From Dokdonella sp. (lineage in GTDB: Bacteria > Pseudomonadota > Gammaproteobacteria > Xanthomonadales > Rhodanobacteraceae): a DNA stretch of 64,000 nucleotides. The notes below the pieces were generated by a model, which made no database searches, was not told where the DNA came from, and saw nothing but the letters and a program-made list of their open reading frames with translations. Positions 13,265 to 47,375 of the stretch are shown here, in pieces. The stretch spans positions 29,194 through 93,193 of the forward strand of contig NZ_JAHCAP010000007.1 of the NCBI RefSeq assembly GCF_019634815.1, given 5' to 3'. The position numbers were made by a program, and so were the translations under genes. The stretch's first letter is position 1. Every line of letters starts with the position of its first letter.

Positions 13265-14146
13265 ATGAGCGGCTATCGCGGTCGCTTCGCACCTTCGCCG
13301 ACCGGCCGCCTCCACCTGGGTTCGCTGGTCGCCGCACTCGGCAGTTGGCTGTTTGCACGCGCCGCAGGCGGGCAATGGCTGCTGCGCATCGAGGATCTCG
13401 ACCACGACCGCGAAGTCCCCGGCGCGGCGCAGGACATCCTCGCCACACTCGCCGCGTTCGGGATGCAGTCCGACGGACCGGTGATCGTGCAGAGCGAGCG
13501 GATCGAACGCTACGCGGCGGCGCTGCGCGAGTTGCAGGATGGCGGTCACGCCTATGCGTGCTGGTGCAGCCGCTCCGATCTGGAGCCCCACGCGGGAATC
13601 CATCCTGCGACCTGCGTGGCAACGCCCACTGCCCGCACACCGGCGTGGCGCCTGCGCGTAGGCGGCGCAGTGATCGGCTTCGATGATGCAATCTGCGGCG
13701 CGCAACGACAGGACCTTGCCCGCGCCGTCGGCGATTTCGTCGTCTGGCGCGCCGACGGCGTGTGCGCCTACCAGCTTGCAGTGATCGTCGACGATGCGGC
13801 CCAAGGCATCACCGATGTCGTGCGCGGCGCCGATCTGCTCGATTCCACACCGCGCCAGATCCTGTTGCAGCAGATGCTCGGCCTGCCCCGGCCACGCCAT
13901 GCACACCTGCCACTGGTGCTCGATGCCCAGGGCGGAAAGCTCGGCAAGCAGGATGCGGCATGCCCGGTCGATGCAGGCGATCCGCTGCCCGCACTGCGTG
14001 CGGCTCTGCGTCACCTTGGCCAGATCGTTCCGCCTGCCGACTCGGTCGATGCGCTGCTGGAACAGGCCGTGCGCGGCTTCGATATCCACCGCATCCCGGC
14101 CAGCTCGGCCGGCGATCATGTCGCAGCGCATAATGCATCGCGCTGA
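13265..14146 (+). CDS. gluQ: Glutamyl-Q tRNA(Asp) synthetase
   Basis: GRFAPSPTGRLHLGS, RIEDLD, CWCSR, GDFVVWRADG..AYQLAVIVDD, RGADLL, KLGKQ; lacks the anticodon-binding domain. Confidence 0.92.
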   Translation: MSGYRGRFAPSPTGRLHLGSLVAALGSWLFARAAGGQWLLRIEDLDHDREVPGAAQDILATLAAFGMQSDGPVIVQSERIERYAAALRELQDGGHAYACWCSRSDLEPHAGIHPATCVATPTARTPAWRLRVGGAVIGFDDAICGAQRQDLARAVGDFVVWRADGVCAYQLAVIVDDAAQGITDVVRGADLLDSTPRQILLQQMLGLPRPRHAHLPLVLDAQGGKLGKQDAACPVDAGDPLPALRAALRHLGQIVPPADSVDALLEQAVRGFDIHRIPASSAGDHVAAHNASR

Positions 14147-14212
14147 CGAATCGGCACACACTGCACATTCAAAAGCGAACTTCGCCGTCCATTTTTCCAA
14201 CAGGAGTCAGTC

Positions 14213-14953
14213 ATGACGACACGCGTCGCCCTCGTCACGGGCGGTACCGGCGGCATCGGTACCGCAATTTGCAGGTATCTGGCCTCGCAGGGCCACAAGG
14301 TGGCCACCAACTATCGCGACGAAGGCAAGGCTCGCGCGTGGCAGGAAGCGCAGAAGAAGGCCGGCTTCGACTTCGGCCTGGCCAAGGGCGATGTCGCCGA
14401 TCCCGCCACCGCCGAGGCGATGGTGCGCGAGGTCGAGCGCCAGCTCGGACCAGTCGACATCCTCATCAACAACGCCGGCATCACCCGCGACACCACCTTC
14501 CACAAGATGAGCGCAACGCAGTGGCAGGACGTGATCTCGACCAACCTCGGCTCGTGCTTCAACGTCACCCGCCCGGTGATCGATGGCATGCGCGAGCGCA
14601 AGTGGGGCCGCATCGTGCAAATCAGCTCGATCAATGGCCAGAAGGGCCAATACGGCCAAGCCAACTACGCAGCCGCCAAGGCCGGCATGCATGGCTTCAC
14701 GATTTCGCTGGCGCAGGAAAACGCCAAGTTCGGCATTACCGTGAATACCGTCTCGCCCGGTTATGTCGGCACCGACATGGTGATGGCCGTGCCCGAGGAC
14801 GTGCGCAGCAAGATCGTCGCGCAGATTCCGGTGGGGCGCTTGGGTGATCCCGACGAGATCGCCTTCGCGGTCGGTTTTTTCGTCGACGACCGCGCGCGCT
14901 GGATCACCGGTGCGAACCTCGCGATCAACGGTGGCCAATACATGGGTTGGTGA
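14213..14953 (+). CDS. phbB: Acetoacetyl-CoA reductase, NADPH-type fingerprint
   Basis: TGGTGGIG, NNAGITRD, SSINGQKGQYGQANYAAAK, SPGY; RBS AGGAG; adjacent to phaR. Confidence 0.92.
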   Translation: MTTRVALVTGGTGGIGTAICRYLASQGHKVATNYRDEGKARAWQEAQKKAGFDFGLAKGDVADPATAEAMVREVERQLGPVDILINNAGITRDTTFHKMSATQWQDVISTNLGSCFNVTRPVIDGMRERKWGRIVQISSINGQKGQYGQANYAAAKAGMHGFTISLAQENAKFGITVNTVSPGYVGTDMVMAVPEDVRSKIVAQIPVGRLGDPDEIAFAVGFFVDDRARWITGANLAINGGQYMGW

Positions 14954-15237
14954 TGCGCGCGCTGATCCGACGCCCTCCGGCGTCGGATGCGCGCATCACC
15001 AGGTGAGGCATGGATGCCGAACGGGCCGCGTCCCAGGGACGGATGCTTGCCACGCCTTGCGCTGACCCGACGCCCTCCGGCGTCGGATGCGCGCATCACC
15101 AGGTGAGGCATGGATGCCGAACGGGCCGCGTCCCAGGGACGGATGCTTGCCACGCCTTGCGCTGATCCGACGCCCTCCGGCGTCGGCTGCATGCGCTTTG
15201 CCCCGGACGGTGGCTGCAGCGCCCGCCAGGTGAGGCA
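14949..15237. repeat. 100-bp tandem repeat (2 full copies plus a partial, degenerate third) built on a REP-like palindrome
   Basis: Units start at 14961, 15061 and 15161; copies 1 and 2 differ at one base (GCTGAT/GCTGAC). Core ATCCGACGCC-CTCC-GGCGTCGGAT; CCAGGTGAGGCA recurs at about 15226-15237. Confidence 0.93.
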
Positions 15238-15375
15238 GGTCGAGCGCAGGCGCAGGGCCGAGTGGGCGAACGGGCACCCTTGGCCCGCCGACCCGGCTCG
15301 GTCCAGCCGATCATCCTCGCGCGGCGCGCACCCGTGGCCGCGGCCGCCGCTCGACATCGGCCGAAGCATCGCAAC

Positions 15376-15390
15376 TGGTGCGCCGCACCA
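15376..15390. promoter_or_regulatory. Putative PhaR autoregulatory operator
   Basis: Perfect inverted repeat TGGTGC-GCC-GCACCA (TGC-N3-GCA core) 20 nt upstream of the phaR ATG. Confidence 0.55.
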
Positions 15391-15410
15391 CATTCTGCTA
15401 GCGTGGCGGC

Positions 15411-15914
15411 ATGACCACGTCCCGCATCATCAAGAAGTATCCCAATCGCCGCCTCTACGACACCGAGATCTCCAGCTACATCACGCTGGAAGAAATCCGT
15501 CAGCTGGTGCTCGACAACGAGGAATTCGAAGTCCGCGACGCCAAGACCGGCGAGGACCTCACACGCTCGGTCTTGTTGCAGATCATCTCCGAGTACGAGG
15601 ATCGCGGGCAGCCTATGTTCACCAGCAAGCTGCTGTCGCAGATCATCCGCTTTTACGGGGACTCGATGCAGGGCTTCATGGGCGCCTACCTCGAACGCAG
15701 CCTGCAGGTGTTTCTCGACCAGCAGACCCAGTTCCGCAGCCAGCTCAACAACATGCTGGGACAGGGTCCGTGGTCGATGCTCAATGATCTCACCGAGCGC
15801 AACATGGACATGTGGAAGTCGATGCAACAGGGCTTCCTCACGGCCGCGGCCAGCAGCATGCGCGGCAACGCCCCCGACACCGGTGAGCGTCCCAAGAAAG
15901 ACTCCAAATCCTGA
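15411..15914 (+). CDS. phaR: Polyhydroxyalkanoate synthesis repressor PhaR
   Basis: IIKKYPNRRLYDTEISSYITL, DAKTGEDLTRSVLLQII, IRFYGDSMQG. Confidence 0.95.
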   Translation: MTTSRIIKKYPNRRLYDTEISSYITLEEIRQLVLDNEEFEVRDAKTGEDLTRSVLLQIISEYEDRGQPMFTSKLLSQIIRFYGDSMQGFMGAYLERSLQVFLDQQTQFRSQLNNMLGQGPWSMLNDLTERNMDMWKSMQQGFLTAAASSMRGNAPDTGERPKKDSKS

Positions 15915-15992
15915 TCATCCGGCCTGCCGCAGATCGGCCGCGCCTCCGCGCCGCTGTCTGCCGTGCGTGCCCGAACTTCCGAGAGGACATCC

Positions 15993-16739
15993 ATGAACGA
16001 TCGCGTCGCCGTCGTCACCGGCGGTATTGGCGGACTGGGCACCGAAATCTGCAAGGCGCTGGCGCGTGCCGGCCGCAAGGTCGTTGCCGCCGACTTGGCA
16101 GCCCGCAGCGAGCGGGTGGCGGAATTCCGTACCGAAGTTGCTTCCTTTGGCGAGCAGATCACCTTCGAGCCGCTCAACGTCGCCGACCGTGACGATTGCG
16201 CAAGCCTGGTCGATCGCGTCGGCAAGCAGCACGGTCCGGTGTCGATCCTCGTCAACTCGGCAGGCATCACGCGTGACACCAGCCTGCGCAAGATGGATGA
16301 CGCGCAGTGGGACGACGTGATCCGGATCAATCTCAGTGGCGTGTTCAACATGTGCCGGCTGGTGGTCGACGGCATGACCGGCCAAGGCTTCGGTCGCATC
16401 GTCAACATCTCTTCGGTCAATGGCCAGACCGGCCAGTTCGGCCAGACCAACTATTCGGCGGCCAAAGCCGGCCTGCACGGTTTCACGATGGCGCTTGCGC
16501 GAGAAGTGGCGAAGAAGGGCGTCACCGTGAACAGTATTTCGCCGGGCTACTGCGACACGCCAATGGTGCGCGCCGTGCCCGAAGACATCCGCAAGCAGAT
16601 CGTCGCCTCGATTCCGGTTGGCCGTCTGGGCGAGCCGCGCGAGATCGCGCGTACCGTCAGTTTCCTCACCGACGAGGATGCCGGCTACATCACCGGCGCG
16701 AACATCCCGGTCAACGGCGGCTACTTCATGAGCTTCTGA
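15993..16739 (+). CDS. phbB: Second acetoacetyl-CoA reductase paralog, NADH-type fingerprint
   Basis: TGGIGGLG, NSAGITRD, SSVNGQTGQFGQTNYSAAK, SPGY; RBS GAGAGGA upstream of ATG 15993. Confidence 0.85.
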   Translation: MNDRVAVVTGGIGGLGTEICKALARAGRKVVAADLAARSERVAEFRTEVASFGEQITFEPLNVADRDDCASLVDRVGKQHGPVSILVNSAGITRDTSLRKMDDAQWDDVIRINLSGVFNMCRLVVDGMTGQGFGRIVNISSVNGQTGQFGQTNYSAAKAGLHGFTMALAREVAKKGVTVNSISPGYCDTPMVRAVPEDIRKQIVASIPVGRLGEPREIARTVSFLTDEDAGYITGANIPVNGGYFMSF

Positions 16740-16759
16740 GCCGCTCGCGCGCGGCTCAT

Positions 16760-17827
16760 TCAGTAGTCATAGCCGTCGATGAAGATGAAATCATCGGGCG
16801 TGCGCACACAGTCGTAGGTCACCGTCATCGGATCGCCCGCCTCGACCACTTCGAAGTCGGTCGGACGGATCCCGTACAGCGAGTGTGAATCGATGTCGAT
16901 GTCGGCATCCGACCACTTGTGCGTGGTGAAGGCATCGGCCTCGGCCGTGAGCGGAATCCCGCCGCCGTCGGAAAGAAACATCCCGTACTTCTTGAGCGAG
17001 CGCAGGATCACGCGCACCGCCTCGTTGCTGCTGAATCCGTTGATGTCGAACGAGGCCTTGAGCCGCAGCCGCGAACCATACGGCACGGCGTCGGGATGGG
17101 TGTCGGAGGTCGCGGTGGTGCCGTGCGAGGCCGGATGCACGTACTTGTGCCGCATCATCCGATTGTTGCCGAGGATGAAGCGGATCGCGTGGCCGAAATC
17201 GCCCTGGGTCTGCATCGCCGCCCACACCTCGTCGGCATTGAACAGCAGCGGCGCCACCGGAAATCCCGCACCATCGGCACTGGTGCAATGCTCGCCACGA
17301 CCGTAGCGAGGGTAGACCTTGGTCAGGTCCCAGCGCAGCCCGCAGATCGTGTCGACGCCGCCGGCTCCGGCGGCATTGACGCCGTACGCCTCATAAAGAA
17401 TCTTGCTGCTGTCGTTGACCACCAGCAGATGGCAGTCGTTGTCGCTGGCATCGCAGTCATAGCCCGGTGGATCGGTGCCCTCGATGCCGCCTACCGCGGG
17501 CAATGGAAACGCCATGCCCGGCGCATCGCAATCGGGGCTGTAGTAATCATCGGGATCCGGCCAGGCAACCACCGGCACAGTCGTCGTCGCAGCATTGGCA
17601 TGCAACACGTACATCCCGAAATCGATCTGGAAATCGAAGTTGCGCGTATCGCCCCAACCCGACGAGGAAAACGCAGCCAGATGCGTCATCATCGCCGCCG
17701 AGTTCGGCCGCAGCGGTGCCTGACTGACATCGACGTTCCAGATCGCATTGGGCTGGGTGAAGCGCGGCAAGGGCGCCGCCACCACCGATGATCCGGAGAG
17801 CAAAGCCATCAAGACCAGTGCACGCAT
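16760..17827 (-). CDS. Secreted protein of unknown function with C-terminal DFIFIDGYDY tail
   Basis: GGAGG RBS; signal peptide MRALVLMALLSGSSVVA; conserved-looking core (WNVDVSQAP, DCHLLVV, TSADGAGFPVAPLL, HAIRF, YVHPASH, GSRLRLK, LKKYGMFLSDGG). Confidence 0.8.
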   Translation of the reverse strand: MRALVLMALLSGSSVVAAPLPRFTQPNAIWNVDVSQAPLRPNSAAMMTHLAAFSSSGWGDTRNFDFQIDFGMYVLHANAATTTVPVVAWPDPDDYYSPDCDAPGMAFPLPAVGGIEGTDPPGYDCDASDNDCHLLVVNDSSKILYEAYGVNAAGAGGVDTICGLRWDLTKVYPRYGRGEHCTSADGAGFPVAPLLFNADEVWAAMQTQGDFGHAIRFILGNNRMMRHKYVHPASHGTTATSDTHPDAVPYGSRLRLKASFDINGFSSNEAVRVILRSLKKYGMFLSDGGGIPLTAEADAFTTHKWSDADIDIDSHSLYGIRPTDFEVVEAGDPMTVTYDCVRTPDDFIFIDGYDY

Positions 17828-17897
17828 TTCAGATCCTCCCGGCCACATGATCGACGCCACGCCATCACAAAAACCGTGACGGCTTGCGCAAGCCGAG

Positions 17898-18464
17898 CTA
17901 CCAGACCAGATCGGCCGGCACGTCGTCTTCGCTCGCCGCGTGCGGATCGCACAACAACACCAGCGCCTCGGCATCGATCGCCTGCGCCGCCAGCGCCACT
18001 TCACGAGTCACCAGCAGATAGCGCCCCGCCAGTTGCACCACCGCCAATTCGCCGCCGTTGAGGCGTGGCAATTGCTCGGCGGTGACGTAGATGCGGCGGA
18101 TCTTGTTGTGATGCGGAAAATGTCGCGGAATGTCGGCCTCGGCGACACCTTGCCCGGCGGTCGCGAGCAGGGCCGAGAGTTTTTGCCTGCGTTCGCGTTT
18201 TTCCTTCGCGCGCGCCTCGGCTTCGCGCTGCTCGCGCTCGCGCGTCTCGCGCTCGTCCTTGCCGCGCAAGGCGTAAGCCTTGGCCAGATCGATCTCATCC
18301 CGTGCGTGCGGCGCCTGCGATCTCGGCTTCGCCTGCGGGCGCCCCGGCCCTTGCGGTTTACCGCTTGCGCCCGCTCCTGACTTGGCCGGCCGCGGCTTGG
18401 CTTCGACCTTGGGTGCCGGCTTGAAACCGGCCTTGAGCAACTGATCGCGCAGGGAATCGGACAT
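17898..18464 (-). CDS. DUF2058 (YaiL-like) family protein
   Basis: MSDSLRDQLLKAGF start, EIDLAKAYALR, KIRRIYVT, C-terminal DDVPADLVW. Confidence 0.8.
   Translation of the reverse strand: MSDSLRDQLLKAGFKPAPKVEAKPRPAKSGAGASGKPQGPGRPQAKPRSQAPHARDEIDLAKAYALRGKDERETREREQREAEARAKEKRERRQKLSALLATAGQGVAEADIPRHFPHHNKIRRIYVTAEQLPRLNGGELAVVQLAGRYLLVTREVALAAQAIDAEALVLLCDPHAASEDDVPADLVW

Positions 18465-45809: not shown

Positions 45810-47375
<1,566 letters not shown>

Follow-up and report, generated by a model that had tools for sequence, protein, structure and literature searches.

We analysed a 64,000-nucleotide stretch of a Dokdonella sp. genome (contig NZ_JAHCAP010000007.1), hereafter the window, in which two paralogous genes for acetoacetyl-coenzyme A (CoA) reductase, phaB copy 1 and phaB copy 2, flank phaR, the gene for the repressor of polyhydroxyalkanoate (PHA) synthesis. 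An earlier note on this DNA, made from the sequence alone, had described this arrangement and suggested that the two reductases use opposite cofactors, NADPH and NADH, in a redox-flexible pathway of poly(3-hydroxybutyrate) (PHB). The three open reading frames (ORFs) lie at the positions given there, and their products pass the cut-offs of the families TIGR01829 (both reductases) and TIGR01848 (PhaR). The locus contains the following features.

14213-14953, + strand: phaB copy 1 (246 aa), acetoacetyl-CoA reductase of predicted NADP(H) type; TIGR01829, 381.5 bits
14315-14317, + strand: codon CGC for Arg35 of copy 1, as read from the sequence; first residue past beta-strand 2 (beta-2)
15411-15914, + strand: phaR, PHA synthesis repressor (167 aa); TIGR01848, 162.9 bits (cut-off 109.45), with matches to PF07879 and PF05233
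15981-15987, + strand: Shine-Dalgarno-like GAGAGGA, as read from the sequence; 5 nt 5' of the copy-2 ATG
15993-16739, + strand: phaB copy 2 (248 aa), acetoacetyl-CoA reductase of predicted NAD(H) type; TIGR01829, 345.7 bits
16092-16094, + strand: codon GAC for Asp34 of copy 2, as read from the sequence; final residue of beta-2

Judged by family, motifs, structural model and phylogeny, both copies are acetoacetyl-CoA reductases of the PhaB family, which belongs to the FabG-like short-chain dehydrogenases/reductases (SDRs). Genome-wide, only these two proteins exceed the curated cut-off of 302.1 bits for TIGR01829, the NCBIfam family of acetoacetyl-CoA reductases, and the next best gene reaches 259.5 bits. 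A sequence search of the Protein Data Bank (PDB) identified the acetoacetyl-CoA reductases of Cupriavidus necator and Burkholderia as the closest solved relatives of both copies, the nearest entry to copy 1 being C. necator PhaB (4n5l, E 3e-83). The two copies are 53% identical and can be aligned without gaps around beta-2. Both contain the YxxxK and N[NS]AG motifs as well as the ISS[IV]NGQxGQxGQxNY segment of the PhaB crystal structures, and N111, S139, Y152 and K156 (numbered as in copy 1) do not vary among 31 sequences from the two clades. The AlphaFold2 model of copy 2 (predicted local distance difference test, pLDDT, 85.5) has 4k6f, 3vzp and 4n5m as its nearest structures, with template-modelling (TM) scores of 0.88-0.90, and the top 13 Foldseek matches to this model are all PhaB entries.

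Maximum-likelihood phylogeny, with representatives at 50% identity, nests the clades of copy 1 (support 100/100) and copy 2 (100/99) within the PhaB radiation, which is split from FabG-type sequences at 99/97. The branching order among the PhaB sub-clades is not resolved, and the copy-1 and copy-2 clades are not resolved as sisters; copy 2 is therefore an old paralog. Its origin as a recent duplicate of copy 1, which we considered, is not supported by these two well-supported clades. Elsewhere in the genus, Dokdonella fugitiva (G006) has a third TIGR01829 member at C5:16872-17582 (352.8 bits), besides its phaR-linked pair.

The same data bear on the possibility that copy 2 is no PHB enzyme at all, being instead a FabG-like NADH-dependent reductase of 3-oxoacyl-acyl carrier protein (ACP), or of longer-chain 3-oxoacyl-CoA, that merely lies beside phaR. 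Copy 2 does pass the cut-offs of the '3-oxoacyl-ACP reductase' subfamilies PRK12824 and PRK12826.1-2, and it scores 271.9 on TIGR01830, for which the cut-off is 297.75. However, its best family is TIGR01829, above the cut-off, it branches within the PhaB radiation and away from the FabG-type sequences, and it has kept the PhaB-type NGQxGQxGQxNY segment. In addition, phaR adjoins it in 77 of 77 loci, and the genome contains separate, lower-scoring FabG-like genes. We regard a FabG-like function of copy 2 as very unlikely.

The two copies differ where classical SDRs read their cofactor. According to the published rules, NAD(H) is indicated by an acidic residue that ends beta-2, and NADP(H) by a basic residue immediately behind this strand and/or ahead of the GIG of the glycine motif (PMC2792337, PMC4785404); Asp34 and Arg35 occupy the two positions that these rules read. 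Asp34 of copy 2 lies 18 residues past Gly16 of TGGIGGLG, and Arg35 of copy 1 lies 19 residues past Gly16 of TGGTGGIG. The alignment pairs Asp34 of copy 2 with Tyr34 of copy 1, and Leu35 with Arg35. In the AlphaFold2 models beta-2 spans residues 29-34 in both copies, within blocks of pLDDT 93 each (residues 31-40 in copy 2), so that Asp34 ends the strand in copy 2 and Arg35 is the first residue after the strand in copy 1. The VAAD end, Asp34 and the 18-residue spacing previously described for copy 2 are hence borne out by the GAC codon and by the modelled strand. For copy 1, the strand had been said to end TNYR: Arg35, its codon and the 19-residue spacing are correct, whereas the strand itself ends at TNY and the arginine follows it. 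Copy 2 combines Asp34 at the strand end with Leu35 after it and with the absence of a basic residue before the G-x-G of TGGIGGLG, as expected for an NAD(H)-type enzyme. In copy 1, the non-acidic Tyr34 ends beta-2 and Arg35 comes next, as expected for the strand of an NADP(H)-type enzyme.

These residues are conserved to a striking degree in their respective clades. All 54 copy-1 orthologs read have TN[YF]RD, and all 75 copy-2 orthologs read have [AVCL]DLxxRxxR, with D34, L35, R38 and R41 invariant, while the loop positions between the invariant residues are free to vary. Fixed motifs amid variable loop positions are the pattern expected if each pocket is under selection. Judged from these alignments, both cofactor motifs are under strong purifying selection, and the pair of motifs is no chance feature of a single sequence.

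As a soft cross-check, PDB searches were limited to the N-terminal ~65 residues of the two proteins. For copy 1, this segment finds NADPH-type PhaBs at E 1e-12, an E-value about a million-fold better than that of copy 2. Its next matches are MabA, Staphylococcus aureus FabG, trihydroxynaphthalene reductase and carbonyl reductases, which we take to be NADPH-type SDRs. The segment of copy 2 has the (3R)-hydroxyacyl-CoA dehydrogenase 2et6 as its best match, KVVAADL being aligned with KVVVNDL, and its further matches include Mycobacterium tuberculosis FabG4, secoisolariciresinol dehydrogenase, butanediol and 3-hydroxybutyrate dehydrogenases, 7-alpha-hydroxysteroid dehydrogenases, an 'NADH-dependent quinuclidinone reductase' and 4nbt, 4nbu and 4nbw. 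Beyond the PhaBs, these matches, including FabG4 and 4nbu/4nbt/4nbw, are largely NAD-type SDRs.

The gene pair is widespread among relatives. In a survey of 201 genomes sampled evenly across the order Lysobacterales (Xanthomonadales), with hits counted by hand, we found a copy-2-type gene in 82 genomes (60-100% identity), about 78 of which also carry the copy-1 type; the pairing is kept in ~40% of the sampled genomes of the order, and the copy-1 type occurs alone in 27. The Asp-type clade of copy 2 has, moreover, thousands of metagenomic relatives. A reductase of NADH type had been called uncommon, which is accurate among characterised enzymes only; in nature, the frequency of the Asp-type clade in the surveyed genomes and in metagenomes contradicts it. 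Of 80 related loci, most of those whose upstream sequence reaches far enough show the gene order copy 1, phaR, copy 2. Where DNA upstream of copy 2 is available, phaR is its immediate 5' neighbour on the same strand in all 77 loci (median gap 109 bp), and the spacer between copy 1 and phaR measures 85-1857 bp in the relatives. In Rhodanobacter and Dyella, copy 1 is not beside phaR. We considered whether these genera depend on copy 2 alone and rejected the idea, since each of their genomes encodes a copy-1 type (370-376 bits) at another locus; the two paralogs are kept also when unlinked.

A similar cluster was noticed in the unrelated genome GCA_000373765.1 (KB892382.1; L092:4172-6680). It contains a PhaB-like SDR without the Asp (beta-2 end CYFKDGKH), directly followed by an Asp-type PhaB (P0146; ALDL; TIGR01829, 310.7 bits), then by a phaR-like gene with PHB_acc_N and by a phasin gene. 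With this cluster, pairs with opposite fingerprints are known next to PHA regulators in at least two lineages, which suggests that the paired arrangement arose or was kept more than once.

The interpretation that we consider on balance probable is that the two copies are ancient PhaB paralogs differing at the adenosine-ribose pocket, copy 1 being NADPH-preferring and copy 2 NADH-preferring. Both would interconvert acetoacetyl-CoA and (R)-3-hydroxybutyryl-CoA in the PHB cycle. In copy 1, which has no acidic beta-2 end, Arg35 and Lys39 are predicted to bind the 2'-phosphate, so that the enzyme should prefer NADPH; Lys39 aligns with Arg40 of C. necator PhaB, a ligand of the 2'-phosphate (PMC8904767). 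In copy 2, Asp34 should form hydrogen bonds with the 2' and 3' hydroxyls of NADH and repel the 2'-phosphate; with such contacts and no basic residue at the NADP positions, this enzyme should prefer NADH. With this pair, PHB metabolism could be supplied from either of the two pyridine-nucleotide pools. Cofactor preference, (R)-stereochemistry, co-transcription of phaR with copy 2 and coupling to two pools are predictions inferred from sequence. The interpretation put forward in the earlier note is therefore partly supported: it is the best-supported reading of the locus and still a prediction.

Several points weigh against this interpretation. The second feature of NADP(H) enzymes is missing from copy 1, which has Gly14, and not Arg or Lys, before GIG; this is no argument against the use of NADPH because the NADPH-dependent C. 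necator PhaB also has no basic residue there (GGMGGIG). Directly after Arg35, copy 1 carries the acidic pair Asp36-Glu37. Copy 2 has two invariant arginines in the loop, R38 and R41, and dual specificity of this enzyme is possible because R41 aligns with the phosphate-binding Arg40 of C. necator PhaB. In the PhaB family, the preference is further influenced by determinants beyond the beta2-alpha2 loop (PMC8904767). Our literature search found no kinetic data for any member of either clade, and nothing relevant on PhaB cofactor use in Rhodanobacter, Dokdonella or Xanthomonadales. Finally, a scan of 13900-17000 for sigma-70 promoters and terminators returned no promoter-like site and a sole terminator-like site inside copy 1, and thus nothing that delimits transcription units at phaB-phaR-phaB.

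Some of these points could mean that Asp34 is not decisive, so that copy 2 would work with NADPH, or with both cofactors to a similar extent, and the difference between the paralogs would lie instead in regulation, kinetics, substrate inhibition or chain length. Besides the invariant R38 and the alignment of R41, this view draws on the finding that cofactor recognition by SDRs involves more than the key residues (PMC4785404) and on the determinants outside the loop mentioned above (PMC8904767). However, all 75 orthologs read have the Asp, it occupies the exact canonical position in a confidently modelled region, and both canonical NADP positions of copy 2 are without a basic residue. We regard an indecisive Asp34 as quite unlikely.

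The linkage to phaR adds a regulatory aspect to the proposed division between cofactors. In the window, phaR and copy 2 are probably co-transcribed, because only 78 bp separate them and no terminator was detected in between. Given this tight linkage and the probable co-transcription, the level of copy 2 is likely to be tied to the autoregulation of PhaR, which it would follow.

A different physiology can be attached to the same cofactor split, namely a division by direction, in which copy 1 serves PHB synthesis with NADPH and copy 2 works mainly as an NAD+-linked (R)-3-hydroxybutyryl-CoA dehydrogenase that oxidises the monomer set free in PHB mobilisation, catabolic and not a second reductive entry into the pathway. 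Among solved structures, 2et6 comes closest to copy 2 in the cofactor segment; it has the same VVxxDL end of beta-2, and we take it to be a catabolic, NAD+-dependent enzyme of beta-oxidation, from the peroxisomal multifunctional enzyme type 2 (MFE-2). An intracellular PhaZ is encoded in the genome, cellular NAD+/NADH ratios generally favour oxidation, and the linkage to phaR would tie the expression of copy 2 to the presence of granules. An NAD+-linked catabolic role fits the evidence as well as redox-flexible synthesis does, in which copy 2 might work when conditions are reduced and low in oxygen. On the other hand, the sequence carries no sign of the direction of the reaction, and the NADH-using PhaBs of Allochromatium and Accumulibacter act reductively in PHB synthesis (PMC5116212, PMC8904767). 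We consider a mainly catabolic copy 2 unlikely, albeit by no means negligible.

The reductive and oxidative roles could also be combined, with phaB1-phaR-phaB2 as a redox valve gated by PhaR, in which NADPH- and NADH-type (R)-specific reductases share one substrate couple, acetoacetyl-CoA and (R)-3-hydroxybutyryl-CoA. The cell might then choose which nucleotide pool is drained by PHB synthesis or refilled by mobilisation, and with both enzymes active, reducing equivalents might be moved between NADH and NADPH in the manner of a soluble transhydrogenase. We find this extension of the model decidedly improbable. We also considered whether the paralog pair replaces missing transhydrogenases, which is only partly true: PntB is present on contig C23, whereas no gene in the genome matches SthA above the family cut-off, the best NF003585 score being 331 against a cut-off of 465 bits. 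This best match, at about 45948-47354 (+) of the window (G000:C58:75141-76547), is probably another flavoprotein disulfide oxidoreductase.

The host genome (3.24 Mb, 60 contigs, rated 100% complete) belongs to an organism described as a soil or wastewater gammaproteobacterium, and its PHB gene set is complete. Comparison with related loci places it close to Dokdonella, in the family Rhodanobacteraceae of the Lysobacterales. The phaE and phaC genes, which the earlier note had named as still to be located, were found on contig C23, and the other components are distributed as follows.

Contig C23, ~181-183 kb: phaE-phaC, a class III pair
C23:103786-105015: phaZ, intracellular depolymerase
Contig C32: phasin
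Contigs C12, C9 and C2: three thiolases

The remaining details of the locus concern gene starts, the spacer and the neighbours. The mechanical ORF of copy 2 begins at GTG 15963, 30 nt 5' of the conserved ATG 15993. We placed the start at the ATG because of the GAGAGGA Shine-Dalgarno sequence and because the orthologs begin at the matching position, nearly all with Met; the residue numbering used in the earlier note implies the same start. Some copy-2 orthologs are listed in databases at 256-299 aa, so that several public annotations seem to place the start too far upstream. The spacer between copy 1 and phaR (14954-15410, 457 bp) contains a 100-bp tandem repeat at 14959-15190 (2.3 copies, 97% matches) that is rich in GC hairpins, e.g. 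CCGACGCCCTCCGGCGTCGG. It looks like an intergenic element of the repetitive extragenic palindromic/bacterial interspersed mosaic element (REP/BIME) type and might delimit or stabilise transcripts between copy 1 and phaR. Directly 3' of copy 2 lies a convergent ORF, in which a search of Pfam at E 1e-5 found no match.

16760-18004, - strand: ORF of 413-414 aa with a GC content at third codon positions (GC3) of 0.79

The other neighbours of phaB-phaR-phaB in the window encode a GluQ-RS-like protein, an HtpX-type M48 peptidase, a PAS-GGDEF-EAL protein, DUF2058 and SlyX proteins and a GDP-mannose dehydratase, and are unconnected with PHA.

Fermentative production of PHB needs an acetoacetyl-CoA reductase with a true preference for NADH. 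Only the enzyme of Accumulibacter has been rigorously shown to prefer NADH, and much effort has gone into redesigning C. necator PhaB for NADH (PMC8904767). The copy-2 clade is a large natural group within the PhaB family with the textbook NAD(H) signature and with a structural solution unlike that of the enzymes with a Glu37 loop, and it could be an uncharacterised natural source of a predicted NADH-using reductase for PHB engineering. The prediction is directly testable because the clade includes the cultivable Dokdonella fugitiva, D. soli, Rhodanobacter denitrificans and Mizugakiibacter sediminis. From a more general viewpoint, the co-retention of NADPH- and NADH-type paralogs suggests that PHB metabolism in this order is wired to both redox pools, which bears on PHB as an electron sink in habitats with fluctuating oxygen. 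If copy 2 turned out to have no preference for NADH, the finding would shrink to an ordinary pair of paralogs. Its value is practical, for NADH-driven PHB production; it implies no new mechanism or fold.

Among known systems, the NADPH-dependent PhaB1 of C. necator (Ralstonia eutropha; PDB 3VZP/3VZS, 4N5L-4N5N) shares with both copies the family TIGR01829, the fold, the catalytic residues and the NGQKGQFGQTNY segment, and is 50-53% identical to both. It resembles copy 1 in having no acidic beta-2 end and in the aligned basic residue (Arg40 and Lys39, respectively). It differs in having Cys34-Gly35 at the key positions and relying on Arg40 (PMC8904767), whereas copy 1 adds Arg35 and copy 2 has Asp34-Leu35. 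Its gene lies in the phaCAB operon (PMC8904767), whereas here the phaB genes flank phaR, and phaE-phaC are on another contig.

The (3R)-hydroxyacyl-CoA dehydrogenase domains of yeast peroxisomal MFE-2 (2ET6) are SDRs acting on (R)-3-hydroxyacyl-CoA and share the VVxxDL beta-2 end with copy 2, but the protein is eukaryotic, multidomain and far more distant overall, and has no link to PHA genes. FabG enzymes (PDB 4NBT, 4NBU, 4NBW) are reportedly NADH-dependent, going by the title of Javidpour et al. 2014, and M. tuberculosis FabG4 is also an NADH-dependent FabG-like SDR. All four are among the N-terminal matches of copy 2 and not of copy 1. They are annotated for 3-oxoacyl-ACP, whereas copy 2 is closer to PhaB (52-53% against 39-42% identity) and is linked to phaR. 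NADPH- and NADH-linked acetoacetyl-CoA reductase activities occur together in one organism in Zoogloea ramigera and Alcaligenes eutrophus. There, the NADH-linked enzyme is an (S)-specific dehydrogenase of beta-oxidation type from another family, unlike the present pair, whose members are both PhaB-family SDRs of (R) type.

The closest functional parallels are the PhaB-family enzymes of Allochromatium vinosum and Candidatus Accumulibacter phosphatis, which are reported to prefer NADH and to drive PHB synthesis, the former also using NADPH (PMC5116212, PMC8904767); their reported preference is the property predicted for copy 2. For both, the determinant has been proposed to reside in the beta2-alpha2 loop, as Glu37, which faces the cofactor, in the A. 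vinosum enzyme (PMC5116212) and as E37-F38-x-K40-P41 in that of Accumulibacter (PMC8904767). We retrieved Allochromatium-type sequences with an approximate A. vinosum query (97% identity to its best match), and only the database sequences are taken as evidence. These Chromatiaceae sequences read VVAN[CH]HPSE; they have Glu37, and their beta-2 does not end in Asp. HMMER aligned Glu37 of copy 1 with Asn37 of C. necator, and we considered whether copy 1 might be an NADH enzyme of this type. This is unlikely: its loop is two residues shorter than the HPSE loop of Chromatiaceae and has no Pro, Arg35 stands at the canonical NADP position, and the N-terminal segment matches NADPH-type enzymes. Copy 2 reads D34-L35-A36-A37-R38, and its Ala37 and canonical strand-end Asp place it outside the Glu37-loop type, although it may work alike. 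Whereas the phaB of Accumulibacter is described as monocistronic (PMC8904767), the copy-2 clade is paired with an NADPH-type paralog. Because the NADH-using PhaBs studied so far use another solution, copy 2 looks like a new variant with a canonical Asp.

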